Positions 10,301 through 16,780 are shown, counted from the first letter of the stretch. The stretch is 64,000 nt of DNA from Methylophilaceae bacterium (GCA_016778465.1 JADHPM010000006.1:4209-68208), one strand, 5' to 3'. A program made the numbers and translations. The notes: generated by a model not told the origin, from the sequence alone.

Positions 10301-11548
10301 TTATTTGCCATAAACAGGAAATTGTTTCGTCAGTTCGTTTACTTTAATTTTGACTGAAGTAATATTTGTTTCATCATCCGGTTGATCTAGGACATCTGCA
10401 ATCAAATTCGCAACCTGCTTAGTCTCGGCCTCCAGAAATCCTCGCGTTGTAATGGCTGGAGTGCCTAATCGAATTCCTGAGGTCACAAAAGGGCTTTCAG
10501 GATCATTAGGGACTGAGTTTTTATTCACGGTAATATGGGCCTGGCCTAACAACTGATCCGCTTTTTTACCTGTTAAATTTTTTGGACGAAGATCAACTAA
10601 AAAAACATGCGATTCGGTTCTGCCAGAGATGATGCGATACCCCCGTTCTTGTAATGCGCTAGCCAAGGTTTGAGCGTTCTTAACAACCTGTGCCTGATAA
10701 CTTTTGAACTCAGGTTTCAACGCCTCTAAGAAAGCAGTAGCTTTTGCTGCAATTACATGCATTAGAGGTCCGCCTTGAATTGCAGGGAATACAAAGGAGT
10801 TAATAATTTTTTCAAACTCTGGCTTGGCAATAATAAACCCTCCACGCGGCCCTCTGAGAGACTTGTGGGTGGTTGACGTTACAAAATCTGCGTAAGGTGT
10901 TGGGTTAGGATACGCTCCTCCAGCAATCAAGCCAGAGTAATGTGCCATATCAACCATGAAATATGCGCCAACTTTTTTTGCGATCTCTGACATACGCTTC
11001 CAATCAAATCTCAAGGAGTAAGCAGAGGCGCCACCAATGATGAGTTTTGGTTTTGTTTCAGTAGCAGTTTTCTCCATCTCATCATAATCAATTTCTTCTT
11101 TATCGTTTAACCCGTAAGGAACTACATTGAATAATTTGCCTGAAAGATTTGCAGGTGAGCCATGTGTCAAGTGTCCTCCATGCCCAAGATTCATTCCCAT
11201 TATGGTATCCCCAGGTTTAAGGATCGCAAAATAAACAGCCTGATTTGCTTGGCTACCAGAATGCGGCTGCACGTTAACATATTCAGCCCCATAAAGCTCT
11301 TTTAAACGATCTATTGCGAGCTTTTCAACTTGATCAACAAATTCGCAACCACCGTAAAAACGCTTGCCAATATAGCCTTCTGCGTATTTATTGGTTAATT
11401 GAGATCCCTGTGCCTGCATAACTGCAGGGCTGGTATAGTTTTCAGAGGCTATCAATTCAATATGCTGTTCTTGTCGCTCTGTTTCATTTAATATCTGGCT
11501 CCATAATTCTGGATCAGTTTTTTTAAGTAATAGGTCTTTATTAAACAT
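10301..11548 (-). CDS. glyA: Serine hydroxymethyltransferase
   Basis: 415 aa; [14 protein letters not shown] and [12 protein letters not shown] (PLP lysine motif). Confidence 0.97.
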
Positions 11549-11846: not shown

Positions 11847-13218
11847 TGCGATTGATAAAAATATTTTTCGCGCTTATGACATACGTGGAATTGTAGATAG
11901 ATCACTCGATAAAGAGACTGTCAACTTAATAGGTAAAGCAATTGGCACCCTGGCACTTGAAGAAAATCAAGGGACTATATGTGTCGGTCGTGATGGCAGA
12001 CTTTCTAGCCCAAAGTTATCAGAGGCGCTAATTACAGGGCTCCTTTCTACAGGTATTGACGTAATTGACATCGGTCTTGTTGCAACACCTATGCTGTATT
12101 TTAGTAATTTTCACCTTAATACCAAAACAGGTGTAATGATAACGGGTAGTCATAACCCACCAAATTACAATGGTTTTAAAACCGTTATCAACGAAGGAAC
12201 ATTAACCTCTAAAGATATACAAGACCTTTATCAGCGTATTTGCAAAAAAGATTTTCGTTGTGGTGCGGGAAAACTCGAAAAAGCAGATATAAAAACGGCC
12301 TATCTCAAAGCAATTACCAGTAATATTAAAATTAAACGCCCTATAAAAATTTCAATAGATTGTGGGAATGGTGCAGCTGGTGTCTGCGCAGTAGAGCTTT
12401 TCCAACAACTCGGAGTGCAAACTGAAAATTTATTTTGTGTGGTTGATGGCAGATTTCCCAATCACCATCCTGACCCATCAAATCCCAAAAATCTTACCAG
12501 TTTAATTGAAAATGTGAAGAAGACAGACAGTGAGTTTGGATTGGCCTTCGATGGCGATGCTGATCGTTTAGGCGTAGTGACCAAATCAGGTGAAATTATC
12601 TACCCAGATAGGCAGCTTTTATTATTTGCTGAAGCTGTTCTTGATGAAAATCCCGGGGCTACTATTATTTTTGATGTCAAATCAACTCGATACCTATTTG
12701 ACTGGATTAGCTCTAGAGGTGGAAAGCCATTCATCTGGAAAACAGGTCATTCTCATATTAAAATGAAAATGAAAGAAATAAATGCTGCTCTTGCCGGAGA
12801 GATGAGTGGCCACACTTTTTTTAATGATAGATGGTATGGTTTTGATGATGCACTTTACGCTGCTGCAAGACTGATCGAAATTTTGAGTGCTCATAAAGAT
12901 CCTTCATTGATACTAGAATCTTTACCTAAGGGGTTTAGTACGCCTGAATTAAATATCGCCCTTGATGAAGGGCAGCAGCACTCATTAATCAAGACCCTAC
13001 AAGATCAGGCCATCTTCCCCCGAGCTCAAAGTATAAATAAAATTGATGGACTGAGAGTTGAGTATGAGTATGGCTTTGGCCTTATGAGGGCATCTAACAC
13101 TACTCCCGTCATTGTTCTGAGGTTTGAGGCGGACACAGACGAGAATTTAAAAAAAATACAAGACGAATTTAAAGATTGTTTGTCGACTTATATTGAGAAA
13201 GAGAATTTACCCTTCTAA
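11833..13218 (+). CDS. Phosphomannomutase/phosphoglucomutase
   Basis: 461 aa; active-site loop TGSHNPPNYNGFK and FDGDADR metal loop. Confidence 0.92.
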   Translation: MSMSNAIDKNIFRAYDIRGIVDRSLDKETVNLIGKAIGTLALEENQGTICVGRDGRLSSPKLSEALITGLLSTGIDVIDIGLVATPMLYFSNFHLNTKTGVMITGSHNPPNYNGFKTVINEGTLTSKDIQDLYQRICKKDFRCGAGKLEKADIKTAYLKAITSNIKIKRPIKISIDCGNGAAGVCAVELFQQLGVQTENLFCVVDGRFPNHHPDPSNPKNLTSLIENVKKTDSEFGLAFDGDADRLGVVTKSGEIIYPDRQLLLFAEAVLDENPGATIIFDVKSTRYLFDWISSRGGKPFIWKTGHSHIKMKMKEINAALAGEMSGHTFFNDRWYGFDDALYAAARLIEILSAHKDPSLILESLPKGFSTPELNIALDEGQQHSLIKTLQDQAIFPRAQSINKIDGLRVEYEYGFGLMRASNTTPVIVLRFEADTDENLKKIQDEFKDCLSTYIEKENLPF

Positions 13219-13646
13219 TGAAAAAACTAATTTTAATATTGCTCTTAAGCTTTAATGCTCTATTTATTTCTTTAGCATACGCCATGGAAAAAACACCAGC
13301 ACCAAAAAATGCTGCGCTATATATCATTGCACCCCAAAATAATGCAACTATAAGCAATCCAATAAAAATTATTTTTGGTCTAAAAAACATGGGTGTTGCA
13401 CCTGCTGGCATAAAATATGCGCAAACGGGACATCATCATTTGTTGATTAACTTAGATAACCTTCCTTCACTTGATCGTCCGATTCCCAGTGATAAAAATC
13501 ATATCCATTTTGGCAAAGGTCAAACGGAAACAACAATCCAATTACCTCCGGGGAAGCATACACTGCAGCTAATATTGGGGGATCATCATCATATTCCTCA
13601 TGATCCAGCAGTTATATCAGAGAAAATTACAATTTTTGTTAACTAG
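13218..13646 (+). CDS. Exported DUF4399-like His-rich protein
   Basis: 142 aa with signal peptide (MKKLILILLLSFNALFISLAYA). Has GHHHLLINLD and GDHHHIPHD motifs, as I recall for DUF4399. TAATG junction with the upstream gene. Confidence 0.6.
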   Translation: MKKLILILLLSFNALFISLAYAMEKTPAPKNAALYIIAPQNNATISNPIKIIFGLKNMGVAPAGIKYAQTGHHHLLINLDNLPSLDRPIPSDKNHIHFGKGQTETTIQLPPGKHTLQLILGDHHHIPHDPAVISEKITIFVN

Positions 13647-14105: not shown

Positions 14106-14177
14106 TTACTTGTTCATTACGTACATGGTTACTTCAAAACCAAAACGCATTTCTGTAGCTGCAGGTTTAGTCCACAT
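14106..14177 (-). CDS. pqqA: Coenzyme PQQ precursor peptide PqqA (copy 1)
   Basis: Hand-translated 23 codons: [23 protein letters not shown]. Has the conserved E-x3-Y core (EVTMY). AGGAGA lies 6 nt upstream of the ATG. Too short for the ORF track. Confidence 0.88.
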
Positions 14178-14557: not shown

Positions 14558-14585
14558 AAAAAAAACCGAGCTCACATGAGCTCGG
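14558..14585 (-). terminator. Rho-independent terminator after the repeat-protein genes
   Basis: Perfect 8-bp stem CCGAGCTC/GAGCTCGG with a 4-nt loop, followed on the minus strand by T8. Lies 23 nt downstream of the stop at 14608. Confidence 0.85.
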
Positions 14586-14607
14586 TCAGATGGATACTAT
14601 AAGAATT

Positions 14608-14886
14608 TTAATAGCCGCCCAAATCAGCACCACCATCGTCTGCTGCAGGATTAAAGCCACCGTTACCACCAATCAATAGAGCATCTGTTGGATGAAAAGC
14701 TGTTGCGGGAGCAGCTTCACTTGCATAATCACCCAAATCAGCACCACCATCGTCTGCTGCAGGATTAAAGCCACCGTTACCACCAATCAATAGAGCGTCT
14801 GTTGGATGAAAAGCATCATCAGCGAATAAGGCTGATGATGCAAATAATCCAGATACGAAACTAACAAAAACTAATTTTTTCATCAT
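14608..14886 (-). CDS. Secreted acidic tandem-repeat protein A (2 x 28-aa FHPTDALLIGGNGGFNP..GGADLG.Y module), unknown family
   Basis: 92 aa with a Sec signal peptide (MMKKLVFVSFVSGLFASSALFA). The mature part has no Lys/Arg, and roughly 60% of it is Asp/Glu, Gly or Ala. GGGAGA RBS upstream. Confidence 0.7.
   Translation of the reverse strand: MMKKLVFVSFVSGLFASSALFADDAFHPTDALLIGGNGGFNPAADDGGADLGDYASEAAPATAFHPTDALLIGGNGGFNPAADDGGADLGGY
14618..14814. repeat. Intragenic direct repeat, 2 x 83 nt, period 114 nt (1 mismatch)
   Basis: 14618-14700 and 14732-14814 are identical except for one A/G difference. Confidence 0.95.
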
Positions 14887-14952
14887 TTTCTCCCGTTCGT
14901 TTATAAATAATAATTGAAGTAATTTTTAATCATAAAAGGAGAAAATTGAAAA

Positions 14953-15237
14953 TTAGTAATCTCCTAAATCTGCTCCACCCTCTTCCGCTGATGGGTTAAA
15001 GCCACCGTTACCACCAATTAATAATGCGTCGGTTGGGTGGAATTCTTTTTCCGGTGCAGCTGGCGCGTCTAAATCACCAAGGTCAGCCCCGCCCTCTTCC
15101 GCTGATGGGTTAAAGCCACCGTTACCACCAATTAATAATGCGTCAGTTGGGTGGAATTCCTCTGCGGGCTCTGGCTCAGGTGTTGCGCAACCAAATAAAA
15201 ACGCCCCCATAAATGTTGCAAGTAAAGTCTTCTTCAT
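14953..15237 (-). CDS. Lipoprotein-type acidic tandem-repeat protein B (paralog of protein A), unknown family
   Basis: 94 aa with signal peptide and lipobox (LFGC). Same 28-aa module twice, with the same 38-aa period. GGGGAG RBS upstream. Confidence 0.7.
   Translation of the reverse strand: MKKTLLATFMGAFLFGCATPEPEPAEEFHPTDALLIGGNGGFNPSAEEGGADLGDLDAPAAPEKEFHPTDALLIGGNGGFNPSAEEGGADLGDY
14978..15159. repeat. Intragenic direct repeat, 2 x ~68 nt, period 114 nt (1 mismatch)
   Basis: 14978-15045 and 15092-15159: 53 nt identical, one G/A difference, then 14 nt identical. Confidence 0.95.
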
Positions 15238-15321
15238 TTACATACTCCCCTGTTAGTAAAAAAAAATGCAAATATATTGCAAAACAACAATTCATTAAGG
15301 TTTATTTAACTTAATAGTTCA

Positions 15322-15350
15322 AATATGACAATTTTATTACGGTATGTCAA
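15322..15350 (-). promoter_or_regulatory. Candidate sigma-70 promoter for the repeat-protein genes
   Basis: Minus strand reads TTGACA-N17-CATATT, about 85 nt upstream of the ATG at 15237. Pattern match only. Confidence 0.35.
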
Positions 15351-15371: not shown

Positions 15372-15977
15372 CTAAAAAATTAAAACCTTATTTTTCAGTA
15401 GAGCGCTAGCAAAGGGTGAACCTAGTTTGGAGGATTTTTGAATTAACTTGTAAGCTCTGGGAGTTTCTTTTGGCACTATATAACCATAGTAATAGAGCAA
15501 GCCTAAGTTAAATAAAGCCTCAGGGTGATCGTTTCCAGCAGCCTGTTTAAGCCAAGTGTAGGCTTCAGCTTTGCCTACACCCATGTCGTTAACGTACAAA
15601 AACCAAAAAAGGTATTGTGTTTCTATATCGCCAGAATTGCCAACTCTCCTGAGTTCTTTTAAGCCCTCTGCTGAGTATATCTTCTCTAAAACAGGTTCAT
15701 ATTTTTTTACGTTATCGATAAATAAATGAATACGAAAGTCATCCTTCTTGAGGTAACTTAGTAAATATTTTTGACTCTTAATATGATTTTGATAAGACGC
15801 AACTTCTAATAAATCTTTTGCCGTGTTTAGATCGTCTTCGATGAGTAATTGCGCAAATCGAAATTGCTGATCAGGCTCTCCCTCCAAAGCATTTTTGGAC
15901 AATTCATCCGCTACAGCTCCGAGACAGAGAAAAATCTTAAAAAGTAGTAAGAATTTAAATAGCTGAAAAGTGGACAT
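15372..15977 (-). CDS. Exported Sel1-like (TPR-family) repeat protein
   Basis: 201 aa with a signal peptide. C-terminal Sel1-type repeats (AYTWLKQAAGNDHPEALFNLGLLYYYGY...AYKLIQKSSKLG). Confidence 0.65.
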   Translation of the reverse strand: MSTFQLFKFLLLFKIFLCLGAVADELSKNALEGEPDQQFRFAQLLIEDDLNTAKDLLEVASYQNHIKSQKYLLSYLKKDDFRIHLFIDNVKKYEPVLEKIYSAEGLKELRRVGNSGDIETQYLFWFLYVNDMGVGKAEAYTWLKQAAGNDHPEALFNLGLLYYYGYIVPKETPRAYKLIQKSSKLGSPFASALLKNKVLIF

Positions 15978-16024
15978 TATTGTTAAATTGTAATAAATTA
16001 GACATAAAAAAGAGGTATATTCCT

Positions 16025-16780
16025 GTGAATTTTTTTAAAAAAGTAAGTTTCCTTTTTTTGCTAACATTTTCGCTGAATTTGCTTGCTGAGGCAAATCCAG
16101 AGCTTTGGCCCTTCGTCAAAGAAAAAATGTTTCAAGATAGGATTATTGTAGATGCAGATTTTGTAAAACTTTCAGGTCCAAAACGTGCTTCAAGTGGCGC
16201 ACAAGTTCCTGTTAAAGTTGAAATTAATTCGCCTAGTGATATCACCATCAAACATGTATTTTTAATTATTGATGCAAACCCTGCTCAACATGCCGCAACT
16301 TATTTTCTAACTGAAAAAACACAAAATTTAAATATTTCCACACGCATTAGAATGGAAACTGACTCCTTTGTTCGAGCTGTTGCTGAAGATACCCAAGGGA
16401 ATCTTTACATGAGTTACCAACAGATACGCGCCTCAGGTGGATGCAGTGGTTACATGGATGTGCACGACCCAGAATTGACTGCTGATCTTGGCAAAATTTT
16501 AATGAAATCTAAAGAAGACTTTTTGGTAACACGAATTAAACATCCAAACTTTACTGGACTGCAACGCGACCTAGCATCTGGTGGTTACATTCCTGAATGG
16601 ATTGTTAGAGACATGATATTCCTTCATGATAACGAGGTAATTTTGGCAGTTCAAAACAAAATCTCAATCAGCCAAGACCCTTACCTGAAAATTCAGCTAC
16701 CTAAGAAAATTAATGGGAATGTTGTTTTAAACGCAGCTGATACCAAAGGTAATAAATTTTCAAAAGATATTAATATCTAG
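16025..16780 (+). CDS. Quinoprotein-dehydrogenase-associated SoxYZ-like carrier (SoxY-SoxZ fusion)
   Basis: SoxY-like N-terminal half (GAQVPVKVEI...IIDANP...) ends in a GGCSG cysteine loop (Cys codon 16442-16444). A SoxZ-like half follows (RIKHPNFTGLQ). I prefer the GTG at 16025 (AGAGG 8 nt upstream, then a signal peptide) over the TTG at 15980. Confidence 0.7.
   Translation: MNFFKKVSFLFLLTFSLNLLAEANPELWPFVKEKMFQDRIIVDADFVKLSGPKRASSGAQVPVKVEINSPSDITIKHVFLIIDANPAQHAATYFLTEKTQNLNISTRIRMETDSFVRAVAEDTQGNLYMSYQQIRASGGCSGYMDVHDPELTADLGKILMKSKEDFLVTRIKHPNFTGLQRDLASGGYIPEWIVRDMIFLHDNEVILAVQNKISISQDPYLKIQLPKKINGNVVLNAADTKGNKFSKDINI

Follow-up and report, generated by a model that had tools for sequence, protein, structure and literature searches.

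The 64,000-nucleotide stretch of Methylophilaceae bacterium DNA analysed here (GCA_016778465.1, JADHPM010000006.1:4209-68208; hereafter the window) carries, on its minus strand, two small neighbouring genes, referred to as A and B, whose products are predicted to be exported and are built from a short repeated module. Gene B (14953..15237) encodes a 94-amino-acid (aa) lipoprotein precursor with two modules and has a strong GGGGAG ribosome-binding site 7-8 nt upstream, and gene A (14608..14886) encodes a soluble exported paralog of 92 aa, also with two modules and preceded by a likewise strong GGGAGA ribosome-binding site. The genes lie 66 nt apart, and their sizes, spacing and common orientation, as given in a first-pass annotation made from the sequence alone, were confirmed by the coordinates and translations of the open reading frames (ORFs). 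The N-terminus of the gene B product, MKKTLLATFMGAFLFGC, is a predicted signal peptide (15187..15237, minus strand) in which residues 14-17, LFGC, are read as a lipobox of the form [LVI][ASTVI][GAS]C with an atypical Phe at -2; orthologs of B carry the canonical lipoboxes L[LV]GC, VAGC, IGGC and LSGC. In B the lipobox Cys17 is followed by the Pro/Glu spacer TPEPEPAEE. The product of gene A begins with a Sec signal peptide (aa 1-22; 14821..14886, minus strand) that ends in ...SSALFA before DD, an architecture also found in P0043, P0045 and L002. The translations thus contain the one Sec signal and the one lipobox that had been described, and both products are predicted to be exported.

Each mature protein consists of two copies of FHPTDALLIGGNGGFNP followed by an acidic tail, with a linker of 9-10 Ala/Pro residues. 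Within these modules a 16-residue core can be delimited, which in B occupies aa 28-43 (core 1, 15109..15156) and aa 66-81 (core 2, 14995..15042), both reading FHPTDALLIGGNGGFN, and in A occupies aa 26-41 (core 1, 14764..14811) and aa 64-79 (core 2, 14650..14697), all four being encoded on the minus strand. At the DNA level four 90-nt copies lie in register with a spacing of 114 nt (38 aa) in both genes, where the copies are 96% identical inside A and 72-76% identical between A and B. The C-terminus of both proteins reads GGADLG[DG]Y, and mature A is free of Lys and Arg, two features that had been noted before and hold here; the net charge of mature A is about -12, with a computed isoelectric point of about 4.0-4.1, and that of mature B is about -16.

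No significant match for A or B was found in Pfam, NCBIfam or PDB by sequence or profile searches, and the Pfam RTX, EF-hand and dockerin profiles gave none even at E<=1, in keeping with the earlier view that the module cannot be placed in any known family. A search of 5.8 billion clustered proteins gave 238 word-sharing candidates, 200 of which are relatives, and a profile search run with no filter against 1.84 billion representative proteins returned 25 matches, all but one of them family members (24), the sole exception being a WD40 protein (E=1.3e-4) that matched through its many repeats. Scans of 185,579 species genomes and of Joint Genome Institute (JGI) metagenomes placed the gene only in streamlined pelagic Methylophilaceae, where its carriers are marine OM43 (HTCC2181, KB13, LSUCC and MBRS strains, BACL14) and freshwater 'Ca. 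Methylopumilus', and the family is present in essentially all sampled genomes of both. The first-pass annotation had made its proposal depend on homologs and synteny in related genomes, and both exist, with about 200 relatives and a conserved gene order in marine lineages. No relative was found among 2.9 million viral contigs, on which ground a phage origin was rejected. The names given in the source databases are uninformative throughout ('hypothetical protein', 'exported protein of unknown function', 'secreted protein'), a protein identical to B being named hypothetical in Methylophilaceae metagenome-assembled genomes (MAGs), and no paper containing the motif or describing the family was found in the literature collection searched. 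By these comparisons the A/B family is undescribed and lineage-restricted, and matches no known family.

What is conserved across the family is the 16-residue core FHPTDALLIGGNG[G/P/Q]FN (FHPTDALLIGGNGxFN) and not the acidic part. When all modules matching at 10 or more of the 16 positions were collected from 126 loci and the window (127 sources), 254 module copies were obtained, which represent 139 distinct DNA versions, and the exact core FHPTDALLIGGNG[G/P/Q]FN is encoded by 130 of these 139. All synonymous codons are used at every residue of the core; both Leu positions, for instance, show the full set of six codons, and Gly, Pro, Thr and Ala each show their full set of four. For comparison, SHMT from the same loci is 79-90% identical to the window copy and PGM 60-80%, so that the 16-residue core is more conserved than neighbouring SHMT. 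The invariant core contains one Asp and one His, the remainder being mostly hydrophobic or Gly/Asn.

This combination of saturated synonymous sites and a frozen peptide rules out a spurious ORF as well as a DNA-level or RNA-level element, and the codon usage indicates that the A and B ORFs are really translated and are under strong purifying selection. Translation of the ORFs, on which the first-pass annotation had also made its proposal depend, is in this way supported. An RNA element was rejected, where Rfam gave no match and selection acts at the level of the peptide. The idea that the ORFs are spurious or decaying, or that they are a nucleic-acid-level repeat with no protein function, might be suggested by their shortness and repetitiveness, by their uninformative database names and by the lack of domain matches; however, apart from the codon evidence, which refutes it already, the signal peptides and ribosome-binding sites are conserved, Rfam is silent and the family is found almost throughout the sampled OM43 and Methylopumilus genomes, so that its probability is practically negligible. 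The repeat is likewise far beyond what chance would produce, as judged from the recurrence of the module in about 200 proteins under strong purifying selection.

Almost everything around the core varies. The acidic tail keeps its composition and not its sequence, with Asp or Glu at position +4 in 77% of modules and little else fixed, and tails are homogenised within a gene. The period that had been described as exactly 38 aa holds for A and B, with their 114-nt spacing, but ranges from 30 to 43 aa across the family, and the 28-aa module defined earlier is likewise a local feature of A and B, whereas family-wide the invariance is limited to the first 16 residues. Proteins contain one, two or three modules; their C-termini are diverse (GDY, GLD, GWSWW, NFDQNE, SEYSENK); and a Lys found at position -2 in 63% of modules is missing in the window proteins. 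Freshwater forms have a charge of about -7 and include Lys. Both lipoprotein and soluble forms exist, where the two occur in tandem in at least two marine lineages, as in the window, and are sometimes fused; soluble-only lineages also exist, and most genomes have a single family gene. A second module type, [FY]HPTDDVNAQSQGGKGF...DGSEVDF, which takes the first position in many lipoproteins, has only FHPTD and GG[NK]G in common with the main type, and no other module is present in loci L028 and L036. The module is therefore autonomous, being free to vary in copy number, spacing and anchoring.

Several individual members illustrate how copy number differs. P0248-P0250 (alleles of window gene A), P0062 and P0266 are single-module proteins of 53-55 aa with a clean loss of one repeat; the single-module alleles lie on contigs of up to 100 kb and reflect either a copy-number polymorphism in the population or collapse of the 114-nt repeat by the assembler. 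P0007 (L042 5001-5441) is a three-module lipoprotein of 146 aa with the C-terminus GWSWW, which seems to have arisen by a recombination that fused, through their modules, a lipoprotein gene and a soluble gene such as stand in tandem in a sister lineage (L044 4507-4824, 5001-5288). In the metagenomic protein P0129, the N-terminal half of a family lipoprotein is joined to the C-terminal Sel1 repeat of the adjoining gene, and this is probably a deletion or an assembly chimera.

Structure prediction gave different results for the natural protein and for an artificial repeat. The AlphaFold2 model of protein B, made with an 18-sequence family alignment, had no tertiary fold (mean predicted local distance difference test score, pLDDT, 60; predicted template-modelling score, pTM, 0.17), its only secondary structure being the signal-peptide helix and two marginal helical turns over DALLI, with no beta structure. 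Both proteins are rich in Gly, Asp, Ala and Pro, and we read the model as that of an intrinsically disordered protein. For six A-type modules joined in a synthetic concatemer, AlphaFold2 used with no alignment gave a regular all-beta repeat (a beta-solenoid), for which the best model had a mean pLDDT of 61.6 and a pTM of 0.57 and the remaining four had pLDDT values of 33-58. The PDB entries that Foldseek placed nearest to the concatemer model were amyloid fibrils of FapC and CsgA and beta-helix enzymes, none of them significant (E>=0.16, template-modelling score <=0.23). AlphaFold readily stacks perfect repeats, and for this reason the concatemer model is taken only as a lead.

The concatemer model brings up the possibility of a self-assembling beta-solenoid or functional-amyloid-like subunit, in which each module would contribute one rung, with ladders of Asn and Phe, and rungs of different chains would stack. 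By analogy with CsgB and CsgA, the lipoprotein B would nucleate assembly from its anchor and A would be the soluble subunit, the fibre being decorated with cation-binding acidic loops. In-register stacking would explain both the residue-by-residue invariance and the free copy number, the order of the genes, B followed by A, is reminiscent of csgBA, and the likeness to curli CsgB/CsgA and Pseudomonas FapB/FapC extends to the Sec signal, the imperfect Gly/Asn repeats, the variable linkers and the tandem paralogs. However, the natural protein, for which an alignment was used, was modelled as disordered; the strong negative charge, -12 to -16 per 70-78 residues, works against assembly; type-2 modules could not be accommodated in an in-register stack; and most genomes have only one family gene. 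In addition, A and B have no Curlin_rpt or Fap match, contain a family-wide one to three repeats, and have no csgEFG-type or CsgG/FapF-type secretion gene among their neighbours. Self-assembly of this kind is accordingly given little chance of being the right explanation.

WD40 proteins were the only non-family sequences to score at all. The blades of these proteins, as in coatomer alpha ('aFHPTxPLLxSGs'), share with the module the strand-turn-strand pattern F-H-P-T ... L-L-x-[ST]-G-[GS] and a period of about 40 aa, but the PDB profile comparison gave E>=0.23, Pfam gave no WD40 match, and the modules of A and B have neither the C and D strands nor the WD dipeptide. On these comparisons the likeness is a short-motif resemblance and not homology. 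A beta-propeller of one to three blades, which the WD40-like motif had suggested, was supported by neither the natural-protein nor the concatemer AlphaFold model.

An invariant core set among variable acidic spacers, with a variable copy number and with tails homogenised within a gene, is also what could be expected of a Sec-exported multi-copy precursor, a role that the first-pass annotation had raised. Under this explanation periplasmic proteolysis would free a bioactive peptide of 16-28 residues (a signal, an antagonist or a cofactor-like molecule), and the acidic spacers would be pro-regions. Yeast alpha-factor, the dikaritin/ustiloxin precursors and cyanobactin PatE are alike in these respects and in having a signal peptide, the Lys at -2 of many modules may be counted in its favour, and the tandem pqqA genes next door mean that the locus already yields a peptide-derived product. 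The family nevertheless differs from such precursors in having no conserved processing site at the core flanks, where the window proteins have no Lys or Arg, and no protease, modifying-enzyme, exporter or receptor gene is constantly adjacent in any context. The lipoprotein forms are hard to square with a diffusible product, and genomes of 1.3 Mb with few regulators would not usually be expected to support peptide signalling. Bacterial ribosomally synthesised and post-translationally modified peptide (RiPP) precursors normally have no Sec or lipoprotein signals. Taken together, these points make a released peptide quite unlikely.

The pair appears to form a transcription unit of its own. Upstream of B lies a sigma-70-like promoter-like site (15322..15350, minus strand), TTGACA-N17-CATATT with TG, for which TTGACA-N14-TGTCAT is an alternative reading, and downstream of A an intrinsic terminator (14564..14587, minus strand) with a 10-bp stem of six GC pairs and a following T run ends the B-A unit before pqqA. 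An equivalent hairpin is also found 3' of the A-type gene in L002. The terminator scan gave no other site between or after B and A, apart from one hairpin inside the coding sequence of A, and so agrees with the shared candidate promoter (15350..15322) and single strong terminator (14587..14564) described earlier; a stand-alone two-gene unit is the best explanation for B and A. The hairpin inside A (14813-14841, minus strand) is an 11-bp perfect stem (GCATCATCAGC...GCTGATGATGC) followed by TTTTCA in the signal-peptide part, and it is retained, with one G.U pair, in the L002 ortholog (about 10396-10424); it may be an attenuator or a translation-rate element, or may be due to chance.

The promoter-like site overlaps a block, TTGACA-N14-TGTCA[A/T], which forms an inverted repeat and is found upstream of most marine orthologs (15317-15350 on the minus strand in the window, with equivalents in L001, L002 and L014-L039). 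In some lineages this block is also a direct repeat, TTGTCATAAAATTGTCA, that resembles a Pho box, as does TTGTCATAAAATTGTCAA in L018. The block fits a -35 and an extended -10 element equally well, and a Pho box may be the alternative. For the other high-scoring sites found in 744 kb, no connection with phosphate genes was apparent, the genes downstream of these sites not having been inspected.

Downstream of A, on the same strand, lie two ORFs of 23 aa that match PqqA (TIGR02107; 14304..14375 and 14106..14177), the products of which differ at four residues; the tandem stand-alone pair is conserved across marine OM43 loci, and freshwater loci have a single pqqA match at a variable distance. Upstream of B lie a Sel1-repeat gene (15372-15977, minus strand) and, on the opposite strand, a SoxYZ-like gene (TIGR04557; longest ORF 15980..16780, plus strand, TTG start). 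The Sel1-repeat gene and the longest SoxYZ-like ORF are divergent with start codons 2 nt apart (15977/15980), but the true SoxYZ-like start is probably further downstream, because the TIGR04557 match begins at residue 43. The gene order conserved in marine OM43 is TauE, a small membrane protein, SoxYZ-like (opposite strand), Sel1-repeat, the family gene or genes, pqqA, pqqA, an Adhesin_E-like gene, PGM and SHMT. Further along the window (13218-13646, plus strand), an exported DUF4399 protein with two His clusters (GHHHL, GDHHHIPHD), which is present in some OM43 loci and not in others, may be a periplasmic metal-binding protein.

The linkage to pqqA and the SoxYZ-like gene, from which a connection with pyrroloquinoline quinone (PQQ) had been proposed, is real as an adjacency in the window and in marine OM43, but it does not amount to a functional operon. 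The adjacency is conserved only within marine OM43, where the whole 15-kb region is collinear, with housekeeping genes (SHMT, NrdR, RibD, PGM, TauE, PheST), and freshwater homologs are found 3-9 kb from pqqA or are not linked to it on the contig. A and B themselves have no TIGR02107 match, a terminator separates the pair from pqqA, and neither pqqBCDE nor xoxF was found among the annotated ORFs of the window, several larger ORFs of which were not annotated. A PQQ/SoxYZ operon was thus rejected on account of the separate transcription units, the collinear housekeeping surroundings and the different location of freshwater copies, and judged from gene order the link of the family to PQQ appears weak. 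The Sel1-repeat neighbour, the most appealing candidate, was also rejected as an obligate peptide-binding partner, as it is lost in L014, L025, L028, L031 and L036 with the family gene kept, and it is missing from the fetched flanks of freshwater copies.

In freshwater genomes the neighbours are shuffled and include an XRE regulator, two small membrane proteins, a photolyase-related gene, a chromate transporter, ferritin, TerC and a small heat-shock protein. Distances of 0.9-5 kb separate the freshwater family genes from tRNA-Lys(ctt) or from copies of its 20-nt repeat (L009 15202-15277; L012 11126-11145 and 19516-19535; L037 9126-9145). This 20-nt repeat is a marker of fGI-2, an additive flexible island that Layoun et al. 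(2024, PMC10872708) described in 'Ca. Methylopumilus' and that the region matches, which would place the freshwater family gene in or at the edge of a flexible island, its sequence being highly conserved nonetheless.

Extra single-module lipoprotein paralogs were also seen, as in one marine MAG (L019 7511-10195 and 14332-16074; L123, L124 and L126). One of these is found 78 nt downstream of the gene for a ZnuD-like TonB-dependent receptor and directly after that for a His-rich exported protein of 93 aa; another, transcribed divergently from a small heat-shock gene, is followed by genes for an 82-aa exported protein and a BON-domain lipoprotein; genes for HtpX and for a TIGR00645 membrane protein occur near the extra paralogs, and a further family member lies 3' of a SOUL heme-binding gene. 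Since no neighbour is constant, gene context assigns no function to the family, although it weakly hints at metal uptake in some loci and at envelope stress in others.

Such neighbours bear on periplasmic cation binding or buffering, under which Ca2+, Ln3+ or a transition metal would cause the disordered polyanion to fold around it, with the tail carboxylates and the core residues His2, Asp5, Asn12 and Asn16 as ligands, and the metal would be buffered or handed over, for example to XoxF. The net charges of -12 and -16, an acidity retained in all subfamilies, and the apo form modelled as disordered fit this idea, lanmodulin (LanM) and SilE both being disordered in their apo forms. The paralog near the ZnuD-like receptor and the His-rich small protein, the member after the SOUL protein, the freshwater island with ferritin, TerC and the chromate transporter, and the marine pair adjoining pqqA may all be read in the same direction. 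However, no metal-binding profile matched (EF-hand, RTX, dockerin or other), the invariance of residues that are mostly hydrophobic or Gly/Asn is left without explanation, the carboxylate-rich part varies in sequence, length and charge with no fixed ligand spacing, and the pqqA adjacency is explained by region-wide collinearity with a terminator intervening. Because the conservation lies outside the acidic Gly/Asp-rich tail, a PQQ, lanthanide or metal role is not supported, and cation binding as the function of the family is considered unlikely, if not negligibly so.

Comparison with known cation-binding systems points the same way. Like LanM, the A/B proteins are small, acidic, predicted to be periplasmic and disordered with no ligand, and occur in methylotrophs that depend on lanthanide enzymes. 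The EF-hand loop, D-x-[DN]-x-[DN]-G-x-[ILV]-x-x-x-E, lies between helices. In contrast to LanM, which has four EF-hands, the family has one to three free modules in which the conserved part is not the acidic part, and A and B have no 12-residue DxDxDG...E loop, no EF-hand profile match and no PDB match to LanM or calmodulin. They differ from RTX proteins (GGxGxDxUx, PF00353) also in that the core GGNGGFNPx has Phe at the Asp position, and from dockerin (a duplicated 22-residue Ca-binding F-hand, PF00404) in the lack of a Pfam match. The 'metal sponge' proteins SilE/PcoE are similar in being Sec-exported and disordered with repeated short motifs, where function resides in the motifs and not in a fold; their motifs, however, are His/Met pairs (HxxM/MxxH in SilE), whereas the A/B module has one His and no Met and is hydrophobic and Gly-rich, and there is no sequence similarity.

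A more far-reaching version of these ideas would make the invariant FHPTDALLIGGNGxFN peptide a new periplasmic effector restricted to the most abundant pelagic methylotrophs, either a metal-dependent (Ln3+/Ca2+) folding unit for XoxF/PQQ maturation or lanthanide capture, or a Sec-exported multi-copy peptide that is released. To our knowledge, the precursor logic of such a peptide released in the periplasm has not been described for Gram-negative bacteria. This proposal is regarded as improbable.

The explanation that is tentatively put forward instead, at less than even odds, is that A and B are periplasmic disordered polyanions whose displayed 16-mer serves to dock with, or be recognised by, a conserved component of the envelope. 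This is suggested by a predicted-exported, disordered polyanion that occurs in tethered and free forms and carries an invariant, autonomous 16-mer in variable copy number and spacing, with no fixed neighbour. In this system, B would be exported via Sec and become an outer-membrane lipoprotein on a short (Glu-Pro)n spacer, projecting the 16-mer from the outer membrane, while A, also exported via Sec, would be soluble in the periplasm. The 16-mer would fold only on contact with the conserved envelope component, probably by strand addition through TDALLIGG, and the acidic tails would keep this hydrophobic, Gly-rich peptide soluble and extended. Multiple copies, together with the tethered-plus-free pair, could then lead to multivalent capture or tethering of the partner in the periplasm.

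Some features of the linear-motif class are seen, namely no predicted fold, conservation in short islands and a variable number and spacing of motifs. Among disordered outer-membrane lipoproteins, LpoA/LpoB, LptM and those of the RcsF type offer examples of a lipobox and proline-rich spacer combined with a short conserved element that binds an envelope partner, as would be the case for A and B, but those proteins are single-copy and unrepeated and need their anchor, whereas the A/B family includes soluble-only lineages, and no sequence similarity exists. Several points weigh against the docking explanation. It draws on the pattern of conservation; 16 invariant residues are long compared with a typical linear motif; and the second module type, with only FHPTD and GG[NK]G in common with the first, stands alone in L028 and L036, so that the ALLIGG part is not indispensable. 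The beta-solenoid model of the concatemer (pTM 0.57) favours self-stacking over hetero-docking, and the uniform acidity would be equally expected of a cation-binding protein.

Whatever the partner or ligand, the family stands out in the organisms that carry it. OM43 and 'Ca. Methylopumilus' are dominant consumers of methanol and other C1 compounds in coastal seas and lakes, with genomes of about 1.3 Mb. Genomes of this size keep little without reason, and a family present in essentially every sampled genome, often in duplicate, is therefore likely to have an important role in the cell envelope. It is a clean natural case of a bacterial exported protein in which selection acts almost only on a short repeated peptide, and it merits a database model of its own. 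Knowing the partner or ligand could bring to light a new step, either in the biology of the envelope or in how periplasmic methanol oxidation is supplied with cofactor or metal.

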